Virus record (IMG/VR): IMGVR_UViG_3300030339_000011
Span: 1-64,000 of that record
Length of the DNA stretch: 64,000 nucleotides
DNA from: a virus
Direction: 5' to 3' (one strand)
Positions 1 to 64,000 of this stretch are shown here, piece by piece (positions within the stretch are counted from its first letter, which is position 1; every line of letters begins with the position of its first letter). Position numbers and translations under genes: made by a program. Under the pieces are notes generated by a model, which saw only the letters and a program-made list of their open reading frames with translations, made no database searches and had not been told where the DNA came from.

Positions 1-170
1 AAAAATCTATTATTTACTTTATGATGTGTTTGGCGTTTTTTGCTCTATTTGTTATAAATATCAATTTGAATACATCATTCAGTGTTTTTCATACTGTTAT
101 GTCGTCATTATTAATTTGTGCTTCTGGTGTATGTTTAGGATTTGCAATTGGAAATTTAATAAATAAATGA
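1..170 (+). CDS. Small 2-TM membrane peptide, partial at window start; paralogue of 181..363
   Basis: Frame-3 translation KSIIYFMMCLAFFALFVINI...GVCLGFAIGNLINK* closely matches the next ORF. Confidence 0.55.
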   Translation, partial: KSIIYFMMCLAFFALFVININLNTSFSVFHTVMSSLLICASGVCLGFAIGNLINK

Positions 171-180
171 AAATTAAATA

Positions 181-363
181 ATGAAAAAATCTATTATTTA
201 CTTTATAATGTGTTTGGTTTTTTTGATTCTTTTTGTGTTATTTGGAATAAATCTTAATGAAAACACTCCTGTTAGTTATTTTAAAATTATCATATTATCA
301 TTTTTGATTTGTTCTGGTGGCGCTTGTTTATGTATTGCTCTTGGAAAAATTATAGATAAATAA
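181..363 (+). CDS. Small 2-TM membrane peptide, 60 aa
   Basis: ORF track. Two hydrophobic helices. Tandem paralogue of copies on both sides. Confidence 0.6.
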   Translation: MKKSIIYFIMCLVFLILFVLFGINLNENTPVSYFKIIILSFLICSGGACLCIALGKIIDK

Positions 364-368
364 AAATC

Positions 369-548
369 ATGAAAAAAATAAATTCTTCTTATTATTTTGC
401 AGCATCTGCATTTTTGTCTTTTCTGCTAGTTATTCTATTCATTTTAAATAAATCCATAGGATTAACTGATCCAGTATTTATAGTATTATTGTTCTGTGCT
501 GATGGATTATTTTTAGGAATTGGTGCTGGTAAACGTAGATATGAATAA
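369..548 (+). CDS. Small 2-TM membrane peptide, 59 aa, third tandem paralogue
   Basis: Manual translation MKKINSSYYFAASAFLSFLLVILF...GLFLGIGAGKRRYE*. Below the track's 60-aa cutoff. Confidence 0.5.
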   Translation: MKKINSSYYFAASAFLSFLLVILFILNKSIGLTDPVFIVLLFCADGLFLGIGAGKRRYE

Positions 549-562
549 TAAAAATTAAAATT

Positions 563-922
563 ATGAGAAAATTAAATAAATTCTCTGATAACTGTGACAA
601 ATTACAGTTTGGAGATTATATTCTATTTCAAGAATATAAAGATAAAAATTCACTAAGTGAAGATATGTTTAAAGTTACAAAACCTATATTCTCTATTTAT
701 CTTGGTTGCTTTGTTGCAGATATGGCGTTATCATTTAATTATGTTGAATGGATTAATGATAATAGAGAAGAAGTATCAGATTTTAAAAGTCACTATGAAT
801 GGGTTGATTGTGTGGATGTACTTGGTATTTGGAAAGTTAGACCAACATGGCAAGAAATTATTTCTAAATATAGAAATCAAGAAATTAAAGATTTTGTGTC
901 AAGTAATGATATTGATTGGTAA
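563..922 (+). CDS. Hypothetical protein, 119 aa
   Basis: ORF track. Sits in a codirectional gene block. The overlapping 657..932 ORF is low-complexity and rejected. Confidence 0.5.
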   Translation: MRKLNKFSDNCDKLQFGDYILFQEYKDKNSLSEDMFKVTKPIFSIYLGCFVADMALSFNYVEWINDNREEVSDFKSHYEWVDCVDVLGIWKVRPTWQEIISKYRNQEIKDFVSSNDIDW

Positions 923-931
923 TAATAAATA

Positions 932-1324
932 ATGACTGAATCATTAAATAATGATATTAAATATGTAATTGGTCAAAAAGTTTGGATTGAGTATTTAGGA
1001 AAATCTAAAAGAAAGGCTATTATACTTGGTATCAGTGAAGATATTATAAAAATAAAATTTTCATATTGGGGTGTTGATATTGAAGATTATGTTAGAGACA
1101 TTGAAGTTTTTCCTTTAATGATTGATGATTATATTAATGAGATTAAATTCACTATGAAAATATTAGGTTATGATTTGACTTTTGTTGAAAATTATTTAAG
1201 AAAAATTAAATTATTAAAATTGAATAATAATTCTAATAATAATATAACAAAAGAAGAAGAAGTTTTTGAGAATTTTGAAATTAAACATATTGAAGAATAT
1301 GTATTAAGAATTAAAAATAATTAA
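932..1324 (+). CDS. Hypothetical protein, 130 aa
   Basis: ORF track. Starts at 932; the preceding ORF ends at 922. Confidence 0.5.
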   Translation: MTESLNNDIKYVIGQKVWIEYLGKSKRKAIILGISEDIIKIKFSYWGVDIEDYVRDIEVFPLMIDDYINEIKFTMKILGYDLTFVENYLRKIKLLKLNNNSNNNITKEEEVFENFEIKHIEEYVLRIKNN

Positions 1325-61318: not shown

Positions 61319-61900
61319 ATGGTATATTTTATAAATTTACCAATTAGGACTGATAGATATGATAACATAATGAATATGTTTAGAATATTAAATATAACTA
61401 AATATAAGAAAATTGTTCCTATCACTGATGATATTAGTTCTACTAAATCTTGTAAATCATCTCATATTAGTTGTATAGATGATGCTATAGAAAATGATTA
61501 TGATAAGATATTTATATTTGAGGATGATGTTTGTTTTAATCAGGATAACATAGAGATTGAAAAAAAATTAGATTATCATTTAGATATTTGTTTTAATTTT
61601 TTAAAGAACAATAATTGGAATTTATTTTATTTTGATAATATGATACAATTCAGGAAGGAGAATAATATCATTAAAGGAATATTCAGAGATAAAGTACATA
61701 AAGGAATTGAAAAAATTCCAGGTAAATTATTCACTCATAGTTATGCTATTCATAAAGAATCTTTTAAATGTATAAAGGATTTTGCATCATCTGATTTAAA
61801 TATTGATAGTATTTTATATATTATAAAATTGGACAATAAGTATATGTATTGTGAGGGAATATTTGATCAATCGTTAAATATAACATCTGATATTAATTAA
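61319..61900 (+). CDS. Glycosyltransferase family 25-like protein (start moved to the internal MVYFINLP)
   Basis: MVYFINLPIRTDRYDNIMNMF resembles the GT25 N-terminus. The IFIFEDDVCF segment has the DD motif. Track ORF is 61286..61900. Confidence 0.55.
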   Translation: MVYFINLPIRTDRYDNIMNMFRILNITKYKKIVPITDDISSTKSCKSSHISCIDDAIENDYDKIFIFEDDVCFNQDNIEIEKKLDYHLDICFNFLKNNNWNLFYFDNMIQFRKENNIIKGIFRDKVHKGIEKIPGKLFTHSYAIHKESFKCIKDFASSDLNIDSILYIIKLDNKYMYCEGIFDQSLNITSDIN

Positions 61901-61903
61901 ACA

Positions 61904-61937
61904 AAAACTCAGTTAAAATAATTTAACTGAGTTTTTT
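61904..61937. terminator. Hairpin AAAAACTCAGTTAAAATAATTTAACTGAGTTTTTT
   Basis: Same stem as the fibre-gene terminators at 37048, 38995, 40896 and 63568. Confidence 0.55.
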
Positions 61938-61972
61938 AGTTTGTTAATTTATATATAGAAATAAAATGATAA

Positions 61973-63550
61973 ATGATAAATATACAATTAGCAAGTGAAG
62001 AGTGGGTTGAAGGACAATTAGGCGGAGGTACTGGTGGTTCTTCAGTAACTAATGTTACATATAATGAATTGGGCGATTTGATTAATAATAGTGTATTAAC
62101 AATTGGAAGTCAGTATTTGATTACAGATTATCAGACTATTTATATTGATGCATATTATGGAAATACTTTCACTGGTATAATTGAACCTTTATTAGTAACA
62201 GCTAGTGGAGTTAATACATTAAAACCAGAAGCATATTCAGCATTATATCCTAAGGATATTATATATTATGATTTCAATAATAATACTAATGTTATACATG
62301 GTTCTACTAAAGGATATATTTATAGAAGGATAGATACAATACAGAATAATGATATGCCTTTTGATTTTAGAAATTTTAAGATTGTAAATAATTATATAAG
62401 TAGTGGAGTTACAGTTTATAATTTTTTTGTTGATTATTCAACTGCTTTTAATAATAAAATAGGAGCACTAAATTATAGAATAGATCAAAATAATTCTATA
62501 ATTTTAGGAAGTAATTTTCGTGATAATACAATAGGAGATGGTTTTAATAGTAATACAATAGGAAGCAATTTTAAGAATAATAAAATAGGAACTGGTTTTT
62601 CAGGTAATACAATAGGAGACAATTTTAATGATAATAGTATTGAAAATTACTTTATGTATAATTCAATTGGAAAATTTTTTAGTGGTAATACAATTTCAAA
62701 TAATTTTTACCATAATACAATTTCAAATAATTTTTACAATAATATAATTGGAAGTGATTTTAATAAAAATGACAACATAGGAGATAATTTTAACTCTAAT
62801 AATATTGAATCATATTTTCAAAATAATAATATTGATATTAATTTTAGTGGTAATACAATTTCAAATAATTTCAACTATAATACAATTTCAAATAATTTTT
62901 ACAATAATATAATTGGAGGTAATTTTACTAGTAATAATATTGCAAGTAGTTTTTATAATAATTTAATTGGAGCAGATTTTAGTTCCAACTCTAATATTGG
63001 AAATAATTTTAATAATAATTCAATTGGAAGTCTATTTTCCAATAATGATACAATTGGCGCAAATTTCAACTATAATACAATTTCAAATAATTTCAATTTT
63101 AATAGTGTGGATAATTATTATCAATATAATAATATAGGAAGCAACTTTCAATATAATACTATATTAAGTAACTTTCAAAAAAATTCAATTGGAAGTGATT
63201 TTAATACTAATACTTCAATTGGATATGGATTTGAAAGAAATGCAATTGGAAGTAATTTTAATAATAATTCTATTGAAAGTATTTTTAGTGGTAATACAAT
63301 TGTAAGTGATTTTAATTATAATTCAATTGGAAGTAACTTTCAAAATAATTCAATTGGAAGTAACTTTAATACTAATACAATTGGAAGTAATTTTACTATG
63401 AACAATATATGTGATAATTTTGGATCTGGATTAGATTTATCATCATCAACATATATCTATTTAGCCTATACTAAAAACTTATATGTTGATTCAACAGGGC
63501 TTAACAAGTTAGTATATGATGTGACAACAATAGTAGATGTCATTGAATAA
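61973..63550 (+). CDS. famF fibre-like protein, 525 aa
   Basis: MINIQLASEEWVEGQLGGGTGGSSVTNVTYNELGDLINNS.. core, long block of NNIIGSDF-type octapeptide repeats, diverged C-terminus. Confidence 0.75.
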   Translation: MINIQLASEEWVEGQLGGGTGGSSVTNVTYNELGDLINNSVLTIGSQYLITDYQTIYIDAYYGNTFTGIIEPLLVTASGVNTLKPEAYSALYPKDIIYYDFNNNTNVIHGSTKGYIYRRIDTIQNNDMPFDFRNFKIVNNYISSGVTVYNFFVDYSTAFNNKIGALNYRIDQNNSIILGSNFRDNTIGDGFNSNTIGSNFKNNKIGTGFSGNTIGDNFNDNSIENYFMYNSIGKFFSGNTISNNFYHNTISNNFYNNIIGSDFNKNDNIGDNFNSNNIESYFQNNNIDINFSGNTISNNFNYNTISNNFYNNIIGGNFTSNNIASSFYNNLIGADFSSNSNIGNNFNNNSIGSLFSNNDTIGANFNYNTISNNFNFNSVDNYYQYNNIGSNFQYNTILSNFQKNSIGSDFNTNTSIGYGFERNAIGSNFNNNSIESIFSGNTIVSDFNYNSIGSNFQNNSIGSNFNTNTIGSNFTMNNICDNFGSGLDLSSSTYIYLAYTKNLYVDSTGLNKLVYDVTTIVDVIE

Positions 63551-63567
63551 TTAGATTTATAAAAAAT

Positions 63568-63598
63568 TAAAAACTCAGTTAATTTAACTGAGTTTTTT
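63568..63598. terminator. Hairpin AAAAACTCAGTTAATTTAACTGAGTTTTTT
   Basis: Palindrome with a T-run. Confidence 0.55.
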
Positions 63599-63649
63599 AT
63601 TTATTGTTTAATCAGTTAGTTTAATTTATATATAGAAATAAAATTAACT

Positions 63650-64000
63650 ATGATAAATATTCAATTGGTGAGTGAAGAATGGGTTGAAGGAAGGTTATCT
63701 GGAACAACAGGTGGATCAACAGGTACGTCTGGTACATCAGGTCAAAATGGAACTAGTGGAACAGCAGGTAGATCAGGCACATCTGGACAGAATGGATCAA
63801 CTGGAAACACAGGAAGTTCTGGTAATTCAGGAACGTCAGGAACTTCAGGACAGAATGGATCTGCTGGAAATTCAGGAACTTCTGGTACATCAGGTTCAGG
63901 AACATCTGGAACATCTGGTAATTCTCCTAGTGGAAGTACAAGTACAGTTACAAATTTGACATATAATAGTTTATCTAATTTAATATCTTCAAATGGATTA
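63650..64000 (+). CDS. famF fibre-like protein with a long collagen-like GXY tract; partial, runs off the window
   Basis: MINIQLVSEEWVEGRLSGTTGGS, then about 28 uninterrupted G-X-Y triplets (GTSGTSGQNGTSGTAGRSG...), then VTNLTYNSLSNLISSNGL, where the core domain begins. Confidence 0.7.
   Translation, partial: MINIQLVSEEWVEGRLSGTTGGSTGTSGTSGQNGTSGTAGRSGTSGQNGSTGNTGSSGNSGTSGTSGQNGSAGNSGTSGTSGSGTSGTSGNSPSGSTSTVTNLTYNSLSNLISSNGL

Follow-up and report, generated by a model that had tools for sequence, protein, structure and literature searches.

A gene-family-rich accessory region of a probable huge tailed phage with T4-like affinities

Gene content and organization

The window, by which we mean the whole 64,000-nt stretch analysed here (positions 1 to 64,000 of IMG/VR record IMGVR_UViG_3300030339_000011), carries 140 ORFs in the standard code, with 91% of the sequence coding and a low GC content throughout (19-30%, 23% overall). 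The genes are tightly packed, with 95 of the 123 same-strand neighbour pairs (77%) either overlapping (41) or separated by at most 10 nt (54), and no Shine-Dalgarno sites were found upstream of window genes. A Pfam scan of the whole window returned 21 families, none of them a housekeeping or NCLDV core family, and no tRNA or Rfam matches were found in the window. Multi-member paralogue families hold 76% of the coding residues, and 54 of the 140 ORFs end in the motif K[FY][NS][ILMV].

The first paralogue array (3303..6752, plus strand), recognized from ORF translations and family clustering, consists of about 14 small tandem genes (72-156 aa), many with start/stop overlaps, whose products start with 'M[FL]K[VI]GDKVVCI' and end with 'RF..L.EYR..KL..L'; two of them weakly match phrog_14634 'DNA binding protein'. 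Small paralogues ending in 'IE.Y[LVI]R.KK[LI]..[IL]' occupy 12021..16543 on the minus strand, and a DnaJ-domain protein (15666-16154) lies within this run. Arrays of the 'MK.IK.F[EN] ... KFN[IL]' family (members of 80-150 aa) extend over 18661..34019, mostly on the minus strand, with plus-strand members at 23268-25035 and 32297-32611, and include two LRR members (23841-25035, plus strand) and an ankyrin protein (29638-30090, minus strand; Pfam). For one subfamily (alignment A7), structure prediction gives an SH3-like fold (pLDDT 85.6), which resembles PsaE and YorP in the PDB only weakly. The same terminal-motif family continues at 34113..37006 (minus strand) with five LRR proteins, and a further minus-strand array at 43424..50374, in which nearly all members start with MKYIK.FE and end with KFNI, comprises 11 LRR proteins, a GNAT acetyltransferase (44107-44520) and two non-LRR members. 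In all, 18 window ORFs match LRR_4, with a repeat period of 60 nt (20 aa), and the window LRR proteins belong to the phage family phrog_21719. The family-D paralogues, starting with 'MNKEELS.WF.NKFNSCYPV', occur three times at 52530..53898 and three times at 30795-32188 (both minus strand), with further copies at 58164-59356 and at least 13 more just downstream of the window. The eukaryote-like genes of the window bear the same terminal motifs as their neighbours, and these motifs are conserved at the nucleotide level, with Asn encoded by AAC in 70% of cases against 14% genome-wide.

Six to seven tail-fibre genes are present. Three paralogues (627, 612 and 799 aa; 37087..43333, minus strand) have in common a conserved shaft domain, 9-residue 'N.IG..F..' repeats and a conserved C-terminus; two of them carry the T4 gp9/10 N-terminal domain (T4_gp9_10_N), the window also matching phrog_677 'baseplate wedge tail fibre connector', and the third combines a 'MLNIQLASEEWV' N-terminus with a Fib_succ_major domain (40934-43333, minus strand; Pfam 6e-18). 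A fibre N-terminal adaptor, 'MINIQLASEEWV', is joined to an unrelated, unannotated body in a 333-aa protein at 54302..55303 (minus strand). At the end of the window (59773..64000, plus strand) lie a fibre gene (508 aa), a GT25 glycosyltransferase (61286-61900; Pfam 5e-8), a second fibre gene (525 aa) and the start of a collagen triple-helix-repeat fibre, which runs from 63650 beyond the window end (Pfam Collagen 6.6e-7 on L005:11678-13465). The collagen-like and neighbouring fibres match phage tail-fibre PHROGs.

The gene at 7965..10424 (minus strand) encodes a full-length MVP-like protein of 819 aa with a repeat region, a shoulder/SPFH domain and a coiled-coil (Pfam MVP_shoulder 9e-28, Vault_3 and Band_7), colinear with rat and human MVP in the PDB (residues 330-706 against 339-727, E~1e-13). 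Among 50,697 phage records, relatives were found only in LR756500, LR756501 and LR756503, with full-length identities of 53% and 50% for the first two. Viral contigs in IMG/VR, 209 and 222 kb long, encode proteins 90% identical to it, and a protein from a Haliangiales (Myxococcota) MAG is 40% identical over the full length. The MAG bins in which MVP relatives occur disagree with one another in taxonomy (an archaeon, an unclassified bacterium) and have phage-like GC, which suggests phage contigs that were mis-binned.

Candidate regulatory elements

A palindrome at 7301-7338, with a perfect 17-bp stem and an A-run and a T-run at its sides, lies between convergent genes and looks like a bidirectional intrinsic terminator. 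Five copies of a second hairpin, AAAAACTCAGTTAA...TTAACTGAGTTTTT, directly follow fibre or GT25 genes (37047-37078, 38994-39025, 40896-40927, 61903-61936 and 63569-63597) and likewise resemble intrinsic terminators. The lineage-specific 16-nt element ATATATAGAAATAAAA is present in six exact copies, on the minus strand at 38977-38992, 40879-40894 and 43341-43356 and on the plus strand at 59750-59765, 61951-61966 and 63628-63643, each ending about 6-7 nt upstream of a fibre-gene ATG, and is a candidate late-promoter or leader element. The T4 late promoter TATAAATA shows no enrichment in front of genes, where 3 of its 47 copies lie, and the mimivirus-type motif AAAATTGA lies upstream of just 6 of the 140 ORFs. 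Within a non-coding island (56840..58160) lie a hairpin (56980-57024), a 46-nt sequence repeated perfectly in direct orientation (57017-57062 and 57237-57282), a core richer in G+C (about 57380-57760) and, at 57815-58155, five repeats of roughly 34 nt; the island matches no Rfam family, and its fold z-scores are not significant.

A sequence-only reading of the window had proposed an MVP, collagen with GT25, ankyrin and LRR proteins, a massive paralogue expansion, a tail-fibre-like N-terminus, a Fib_succ_major-like domain, operon-style start/stop overlaps in same-strand blocks and palindromic hairpins between convergent genes, all of which are confirmed by the above results. The mixture that it described, of eukaryote- or NCLDV-looking genes with a phage- or bacterium-looking organization, is borne out.

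Flanking sequence and related contigs

About 46 kb upstream and 20 kb downstream were read, giving about 130 kb including the window. The same-contig flanks encode a gp32-type single-strand-binding protein (30.5 bits against a cut-off of 26.8; phrog_224 (SSB), 1.6e-10), T4_Y16D, Phage_30_3 and RNA_ligase, and the window's own contigs carry four distinct T4-family Pfam signals. The T4-family matches on the window's own genome are to small or peripheral genes, which are able to move horizontally. A lipoprotein-type signal peptide is also present in a flank. No ribosomal, tRNA or NCLDV core genes were seen in the flanks. The window's own contigs, which carry accessory genes only over these flanks, yielded no major capsid, portal or terminase gene, and searches of two protein and two contig collections with portal profiles returned no portal tied to the window lineage.

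The fibre-GT25-fibre module has homologues in the related contigs L167 and L162 (GT25 61-83% identical). In L167 (GT25 61% identical) it adjoins a head-completion gene, gp4 (phmmer 1.5e-26, phrog_218 1.4e-43), and the gene for a late sigma factor resembling gp55 (phrog_234 2e-7), while in L174 a fibre homologue lies between T4-like TerL/portal and sheath/tube genes. The linkage to core genes is a property of these relatives, L167 and L174, at 46-61% protein identity, and not of the window's own genome.

Independent contigs, at least 20 in number and drawn from both JGI and ENA assemblies, show the same gene order (7, 21, 14 and 24 contigs for four different genes). Those with exact copies of the genes include ENA ERZ27249832 k141_151920 and JGI Ga0302271_10000020 and Ga0302284_1000004. 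The longest contig is 177,597 bp both for the upstream flank proteins and for the exact window MVP; exact window proteins are present on contigs of 242,497 and 243,438 bp, and an MVP variant 94% identical to that of the window lies on a 711,471-bp contig, which could be chimeric.

Origin of the window

The window is a hyperplastic accessory region rich in gene families rather than a core module, and is probably a contiguous genome piece of an uncultivated huge tailed phage with T4-like affinities from environmental metagenomes. This reading draws on directly observed gene content, physical linkage to T4-family genes, relatives, and a prokaryote-style organization without Shine-Dalgarno sites. 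The sequence-only reading had left the origin unresolved, a position not upheld here, as the fibre genes in the window and the T4-family genes in its flanks favour a huge tailed phage. It had also seen no virion genes in the window, which was wrong: the tail-fibre genes, two with the T4 gp9/gp10 N-terminal domain, are virion genes, and phage structural markers are therefore present. It had rightly foreseen that the flanks would be decisive; of the NCLDV core, ribosomal and phage genes to be sought there, the phage genes (gp32, T4_Y16D and Phage_30_3) were the ones found.

T4-superfamily membership of the whole genome is suggested by these affinities, and an unlikely alternative is a huge phage outside the superfamily, for example Mahaphage- or Lak-like, that gained its T4-family accessory genes (gp32-like SSB, fibres with the gp9/10 N-domain, small ORFs) by exchange. 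A T4-type portal, MCP and TerL are not tied to the window lineage in the protein and contig collections, the 462-kb T4-like genome and the 735-kb genome lie at about the same distance from the window MVP, and the flank RNA ligase matches LR756501. Moreover, Al-Shayeb et al. place every one of their genomes larger than 634 kb in the Mahaphage clade, and a near-identical MVP lies on the 711-kb contig. Against this, the window's own contigs bear four different T4-family signals, and low-GC contigs of the same sample series have the fibre-GT25 module next to gp4 and gp55-like genes and a fibre homologue within a TerL-portal-sheath-tube block.

Far less probable is a bacterial chromosome, either of a low-GC reduced symbiont or as a genomic island or prophage, with the ankyrin, LRR and expanded families as host-manipulation effectors. 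Ankyrin, LRR and DnaJ proteins, extensive paralogy, a GC content of 23% and a contig of 711 kb are all characteristic of certain intracellular symbionts, and the MVP relatives in MAG bins and the lipoprotein-type signal peptide point the same way, but the approximately 130 kb read contain no tRNA, rRNA or housekeeping families and have fibre and T4-family genes instead, those MAG bins are taxonomically inconsistent with phage-like GC, and the relatives are listed as viral contigs in IMG/VR.

A nucleocytoplasmic large DNA virus of a protist is highly improbable. MVP, collagen-like repeats with GT25, ankyrin, very low GC, paralogue arrays and post-gene hairpins all occur in mimivirus-like genomes and, with the absence of Shine-Dalgarno sites, count in its favour. 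However, these items are not diagnostic. Bacteria and phages, too, have known MVP homologues, and the relatives of the window MVP are bacterial or phage. The LRR proteins are placed in a phage family, and the collagen-like fibres have phage tail-fibre PHROG matches. Against a giant virus also stand the lack of NCLDV core families among window ORFs, gene packing at odds with monocistronic eukaryotic-type expression, the rarity of AAAATTGA, and the T4 baseplate-connector domain on the fibres with the T4 gp32, Y16D and 30.3 families in the flanks. A chimeric assembly joining phage and non-phage DNA has a comparably negligible probability, for although repeat-rich arrays break assemblies and several contigs stop within KFNI arrays, the gene order is kept in many independent samples from two assembly sources, GC is low throughout, and the terminal motifs of the eukaryote-like genes match those of their neighbours.

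Under the favoured reading of a huge tailed phage, the modular tail-fibre or receptor-binding proteins, six or more in number, and GT25 would form a multivalent, late-expressed and possibly glycosylated adsorption apparatus, with each fibre as its own unit of conserved 16-nt upstream element, gene and terminator-like hairpin. The small-protein, LRR, ankyrin and GNAT arrays may encode diversified host-interaction or host-takeover proteins, their diversity presumably arising by duplication and recombination at the conserved gene ends, and the region also encodes the bacterial-type MVP/SPFH-like protein and the DnaJ protein.

Comparison with known systems

The "eukaryote-like" genes of the window are cargo already known from such phages and bacteria. 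Phage-borne MVPs and bacterial MVP homologues have been described, in gut Caudoviricetes and in Myxococcales and Cytophagales (a type with a band-7 domain), and the window MVP is likewise full-length with Band_7/SPFH, although its source is a huge phage of environmental, not gut, origin. Eukaryotic MVP is matched at just E~1e-13, a likeness at the sequence level.

The huge phages of Al-Shayeb et al. 2020, in clades defined by TerL/MCP trees, resemble the window phage in genome sizes far above 200 kb, low GC (24%), an MVP homologue, LRR and DnaJ proteins, a gp32-like protein and a 199-aa protein common to both. The relevant records, each an "uncultured phage", are LR756500 (462 kb), LR756501 and LR756503 (735 kb). 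LR756500 encodes a T4-type portal (2e-70), Gp23 (8e-34), sheath, TerL, UvsW, gp4 and gp21, and has only about five gene families in common with the window and its near flanks; it lacks the 16-mer element as well as the KFNI, family-D and fibre families. The largest of these phages are predicted to infect Bacteroidetes (Al-Shayeb et al. 2020), and a Bacteroidota-like host is plausible for the window phage.

T4-like genomes, with their hyperplastic regions and modular tail fibres, typically contain dense stretches of small ORFs that evolve fast. Like T4-like myoviruses (Straboviridae and the wider T4 superfamily), the window lineage has the gp9/10 N-terminal connector on fibres, a gp32-type SSB, Y16D and 30.3, and in its relatives the fibre module adjoins genes for gp4 and a gp55-like protein, and the fibre homologue adjoins TerL, portal, sheath and tube. 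By contrast, the genome exceeds that of T4 in size by a factor of at least 1.4 and possibly 4, no T4-like isolate has paralogue arrays approaching these in size, and ATATATAGAAATAAAA precedes the fibres in place of TATAAATA. The T4 internal proteins (IPI-III and Alt) are very diverse and have in common only a short conserved N-terminal peptide, the capsid targeting sequence (PMC3012670). The LRR, ankyrin, GNAT and SH3-like proteins of the window similarly have MK.IK.F[EN] in common, a parallel drawn purely at the sequence level; unlike the T4 internal proteins, they are without the T4 protease site (L/I-x-E), and their family also conserves the C-terminal KFN[IL], with conservation extending to the nucleotide level.

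Placement of the window

The window very probably belongs to the accessory part of the genome of a huge tailed phage, and that genome as a whole is likely to be T4-related. The sequence-only reading had left the origin unresolved, between giant-virus or eukaryote-like and phage- or bacterium-like signals; all of the items that it listed (MVP, GT25, collagen, ankyrin, LRR, a fibre N-terminus and Fib_succ_major) were verified by profile searches, and the window can now be placed as huge phage. Its G+C content is 19-30% (~24% overall), and with the standard genetic code it contains ~140 ORFs at a coding density of 91%, which already rules out an alternative code. 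A Pfam scan of all 140 ORFs yielded 21 families, and searches of the 64 kb detected neither tRNA genes nor Rfam families.

Eukaryote-like genes and gene organisation

One competing explanation, a giant eukaryotic virus, draws on the MVP, ankyrin and collagen-GT25 genes and on the paralogue arrays. The MVP-like protein (7965-10424, minus strand, 819 aa) matches MVP_shoulder (9e-28), Vault_3 and Band_7; its architecture of Vault_3, MVP_shoulder and C-terminal coiled-coil is colinear with MVP chains in the PDB (E~1e-13), and the predicted product thereby has the layout of the eukaryotic type, in which repeats, shoulder and cap-helix lie in one chain of ~850 aa. The literature describes MVP homologues with a band-7 signal from both Myxococcales and Cytophagales, as well as MVPs from gut phages. 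A scan of species-representative genomes found a full-length 829-aa homologue (40% identity) in a 70%-GC Haliangiales MAG, which is genuinely bacterial. Closer relatives (71-73%) occur on low-GC contigs (among loci L145, L146 and L147) whose bins are labelled as an unclassified bacterial MAG and as 'Promethearchaeota'; these contigs are probably mis-binned phage DNA. The 18 LRR_4 proteins of the window all match the phage family phrog_21719 (up to 3e-45). Since MVP occurs in bacteria and phages and the LRR proteins belong to a phage family, none of these genes points to a eukaryotic virus. More generally, MVP, ankyrin, collagen with GT25 or paralogue arrays that turn up in a genome scan should not be taken as the mark of a giant eukaryotic virus, as bacteria and huge phages carry all of these.

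The gene organisation is prokaryotic. The window has 123 pairs of neighbouring genes on the same strand. Of these, 41 overlap, in most cases by 4 or 1 nt, and a further 54 are spaced by 0-10 nt, so that 95 either overlap or lie within 10 nt of each other, which argues against monocistronic eukaryote-type expression. NCLDV genes are monocistronic, separated by AT-rich spacers and preceded by a conserved promoter motif (AAAATTGA in mimiviruses); this arrangement is not seen in the window, where the mimivirus-type motif precedes only 6 of the 140 ORFs. None of the NCLDV core genes (double-jelly-roll MCP, A32 ATPase, PolB, VLTF3, D5 primase-helicase) was found in the 140 ORFs or in the gene tables of the flanks. 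Shine-Dalgarno motifs are nearly absent (0-1 of 140 starts), the DNA upstream of starts being A-rich; such motifs are rare in hosts such as Bacteroidota, and their absence, taken by itself, would be as compatible with a eukaryotic virus as with a Bacteroidota-like host.

An IS605-type TnpB gene (OrfB_IS605 and Cas12f1-like TNB domains) lies near the MVP gene in relatives with 90% identity (locus L009, 11271-12728; locus L010, 18741-20198), where it was recognized by a protein search with a 485-aa ORF. Its absence from the window genome indicates a recent gain or loss of the transposon between strains.

Flanking sequence

About 46 kb upstream and 20 kb downstream were read, giving ~130 kb together with the window. 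The flanks hold further accessory genes and small T4-family ORFs. The upstream flank encodes a gp32-type SSB (30.5 bits in Pfam, where the cut-off is 26.8; phrog_224, 1.6e-10), T4_Y16D and Phage_30_3, together with an RNA ligase whose homologues occur across 363 phage records. These T4-type replication and accessory genes are on the same contig as the window: the exact MVP and the upstream gp32, T4_Y16D and Phage_30_3 proteins share the same longest contig size, 177,597 bp. The downstream flank encodes three more fibres (two with collagen repeats), a beta-helix protein, a Laminin_G_3 protein, a 1,335-aa Fib_succ_major protein and further genes of family D, the set whose products start with 'MNKEELS.WF.NKFNSCYPV'.

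A bacterial chromosome would carry tRNA, rRNA and housekeeping genes at normal density, but no tRNA gene, Rfam family or housekeeping Pfam family was detected in the 64 kb, and no housekeeping gene was present among the ~130 kb. Chimeric assembly is opposed by exact-sequence look-up, which recovered the window proteins on many JGI and ENA metagenome contigs with identical gene order.

Inspection of the flanks for core genes, as earlier suggested, thus yielded T4-family genes and neither NCLDV core nor housekeeping genes, and stopped short of the capsid: genes for a gp23-type capsid, gp20 portal or gp17 terminase were not found, either within the window or across ~66 kb of flanks. Tetranucleotide comparison, also suggested, proved uninformative at this length and G+C content, as flanks known to be contiguous correlated with the window at 0.43-0.51 vs 0.70 for unrelated marine T4-like contigs.

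Also encoded in the upstream flank are a protein whose signal peptide is of the lipoprotein type (LFSC lipobox; locus L138, 19431-19733) and LOG-like, NMN adenylyltransferase-like and metallophosphatase proteins (L136, 15032-15538; L138, 14146-14697; L154, 15443-16144), all typical auxiliary genes of huge phages.

Tail fibres and their association with virion modules

Two minus-strand fibre genes (37087-38970 and 39034-40872) carry the T4 gp9/gp10 N-terminal domain (T4_gp9_10_N) by profile search, placing a T4-type baseplate/fibre domain in the window itself; a search with the 65-aa domain returned only two matches. A Fib_succ_major domain lies within 40934-43333 (minus strand), a GT25 glycosyltransferase gene occupies 61286-61900 (plus strand), and a collagen-repeat fibre gene starts at 63650 and runs past the end of the window. 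Alignment of seven fibres revealed a modular construction. The N-terminal adaptor is of one of two kinds: the gp9/10-N domain, or 'MINIQLASEEWV' leading into a linker that is Gly-rich or collagen-like. Beyond it, all have in common a conserved proximal domain, then a series of 9-residue 'N.IG..F..' repeats, and a C-terminus that is likewise conserved.

Six exact copies of the 16-mer ATATATAGAAATAAAA stand ~6-7 nt before the ATG of each of the six fibre genes in the window, the one starting at 63650 among them (38977-38992, 40879-40894 and 43341-43356 on the minus strand; 59750-59765, 61951-61966 and 63628-63643 on the plus strand), as against ~4 matches in shuffled sequence even with two mismatches allowed. 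The 16-mer is absent from the more distant relatives L167 and L179 (related IMG/VR viral contigs) and from LR756500, and is confined to the window's lineage. A terminator-like hairpin of the type AAAAACTCAGTTAA...TTAACTGAGTTTTT occurs in five copies, each following a fibre or GT25 gene. Each fibre gene with its 16-mer and hairpin thus looks like a separate promoter-gene-terminator unit, in which the 16-mer would act as the promoter.

Relatives with fibre homologues were found by searching IMG/VR with the fibre alignment. Five contigs of low GC content within the same sample series (L162, L163, L165, L169 and L179) combine fibre and GT25 homologues with genes of family D and of the largest paralogue set described below. 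L167 contains a fibre-GT25-fibre module (GT25 61% and fibres 46-52% identical), and within ~10 kb it also encodes T4 gp4 for head completion (phmmer 1.5e-26; phrog_218, 1.4e-43) and a late sigma factor resembling gp55 (phrog_234, 2e-7). In L174, another such contig, a fibre homologue (47%) is flanked by T4-like TerL/portal and sheath/tube genes. This context ties the largest genes of the window to T4-type virion modules, in relatives and not in the same genome.

The portal was sought with alignments (A2, A3 and A4) built after locating the T4-type portal of LR756500. Profile scans gave 6 and then 30 loci in IMG/VR and the best 80 of >552 loci in JGI metagenomes, and protein searches gave the best 120 of 3,141 matches among 5.8 billion proteins and at least 150 among 50% representatives; among the matches listed, none was on a contig of the lengths that mark the lineage (177,597; 242,497; 235,581; 711,471 bp). 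The candidates P0105, P0047 and P0335, selected by composition, and 10 more followed through their clusters all led to other phages.

Paralogue arrays

Multi-member families account for 76% of the coding residues in the window. The largest set comprises 54 ORFs within 18661-56831 (e.g. 44927-50374) whose products start with MK.IK.F[EN] and end with KFN[IL], and whose bodies are unrelated: 18 are LRR proteins and 36 are other, mostly small proteins. The N-terminal motif without KFN[IL] is found in the ankyrin protein (29638-30090, minus strand) and in a GNAT protein, which ends differently. For one small subfamily, an SH3-like barrel with a C-terminal helix is predicted with confidence (pLDDT 85.6); searched by fold against the PDB, this model matched nothing more specific than generic SH3-like barrels, at E > 0.01 throughout.

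Codon choice at the motif positions is skewed, Asn being encoded by AAC in 70% of cases vs 14% genome-wide and Lys by AAG in 50% vs 18%, which indicates that the gene ends, or the junction AAATTTAACATATAA(n)ATGAAGTATATAAAG, are conserved as DNA too. A sorting signal could account for this, as could coupling of translation, recombination or gene conversion.

Other arrays include ~14 small plus-strand paralogues (3303-6752), eight copies of family D, with at least 13 more just downstream of the window, and genes ending in 'Y[LVI]R.KK[LI]..[IL]' (2324-2885, plus strand; 12021-16543, minus strand). A basic C-terminal motif of approximately [IL]E.Y[LVI]R.KK[LI]..[IL] is carried by many otherwise different small proteins, some of them transmembrane, is also present in L001, L136, L138 and L154, and is spread over >50 kb of genome; it has no match among known families.

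The best reading of the arrays is as host-interaction genes that have arisen by duplication and that recombine. A more specific and improbable extension, made by analogy, is that the 54-member set would be a phage 'effector arsenal', its terminal peptides acting as sorting signals by which proteins of many kinds enter the virion, to be ejected into the host, and its DNA-conserved ends letting cassettes shuffle by recombination. The capsid targeting sequence of T4 is likewise a short conserved N-terminus on unrelated bodies, a resemblance that serves as a lead only: T4 internal proteins have a ~10-aa N-terminal targeting peptide ending in the prohead-protease site L/I-x-E, which the residues before the Glu/Asn of MK.IK.F[EN] do not fit.

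Non-coding elements

A palindrome with a 17-bp stem, an A-run and a T-run (7301-7338) lies between convergent genes. Sigma-70-like promoters in the window are no more numerous than expected from shuffles, and the T4 late promoter TATAAATA is not enriched upstream of genes. A 1.3-kb non-coding island (56840-58160) contains a hairpin with a 19-bp stem, two perfect direct copies of a 46-nt repeat 220 nt apart, five ~34-nt repeats of the form T-run-GG-A-run-TTTAGAG, and a core (~57380-57760) richer in G+C; it has no Rfam match at the E-value threshold, and shuffled sequences fold with energies not significantly higher than its own. The perfect 31-nt direct repeat TTTGGGGAACGCGTCTCTAATTGATTAGGCT (59649-59679 and 59698-59728, 49 nt apart), a short way upstream of the first fibre gene on the plus strand, is unusually G+C-rich for this genome. 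Two long divergent intergenic regions of 0.7-0.8 kb (50769-51588 and 55304-55998), the second bounded by 47-51-nt inverted repeats (55327-55411 and 55845-55949), may be regulatory hubs or mobile-element remnants.

Host, genome size and comparison with known huge phages

The chances of a Bacteroidota-type host are about even, judging from the absence of Shine-Dalgarno motifs, the Fib_succ_major domains on adhesin-like fibres, the band-7-type MVPs of Cytophagales and the predicted hosts of the largest huge phages. The lineage is under-described, and abundant enough to be assembled from many samples. Three quarters of the region's coding capacity, an unusual share, is spent on a few gene families together with a battery of modular receptor-binding fibres. 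The lineage is a possible test case for the growth of huge phage genomes by tandem duplication and for breadth of host range.

Exact window and flank proteins occur on contigs listed in the database as 242,497 and 243,438 bp, and a 94%-identical MVP on contigs listed as 235,581 bp (JGI Ga0302284_1000004, syntenic with the window around this gene) and 711,471 bp; the same MVP variant recurs across seven blocks with contigs of 0.2-1 Mb. IMG/VR viral contigs of 209 and 222 kb carry a 90%-identical MVP. By these listed sizes, the genome exceeds the 200 kb that marks a huge phage (Al-Shayeb et al. 2020).

Among 50,697 phage records, MVP matches were found only in the 'uncultured phage' records LR756500 (462 kb, 53%) and LR756501/LR756503 (735,411 bp, 50%). 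Al-Shayeb et al. 2020 assign their genomes >634 kb to the Mahaphage clade, with predicted Bacteroidetes hosts; the 50%-identical MVP of the 735-kb record is the only link of the window genome to that clade. LR756500 has 24% G+C and encodes a T4-type portal (2e-70), Gp23 (8e-34), sheath, TerL, UvsW, gp4 and gp21; it has in common with the window region only MVP, LRR, DnaJ (15666-16154, minus strand, by profile search in the window), a gp32-like protein and one 199-aa protein. Its T4-type terminase is split into at least three ORFs, and it carries 8-9 copies of a DUF7487/homing-endonuclease family and two TnpB-like genes. If the 711-kb contig of the window's lineage is one genome, it would be comparable in size to the largest known from phages (735 kb), and would have T4-like affinities.
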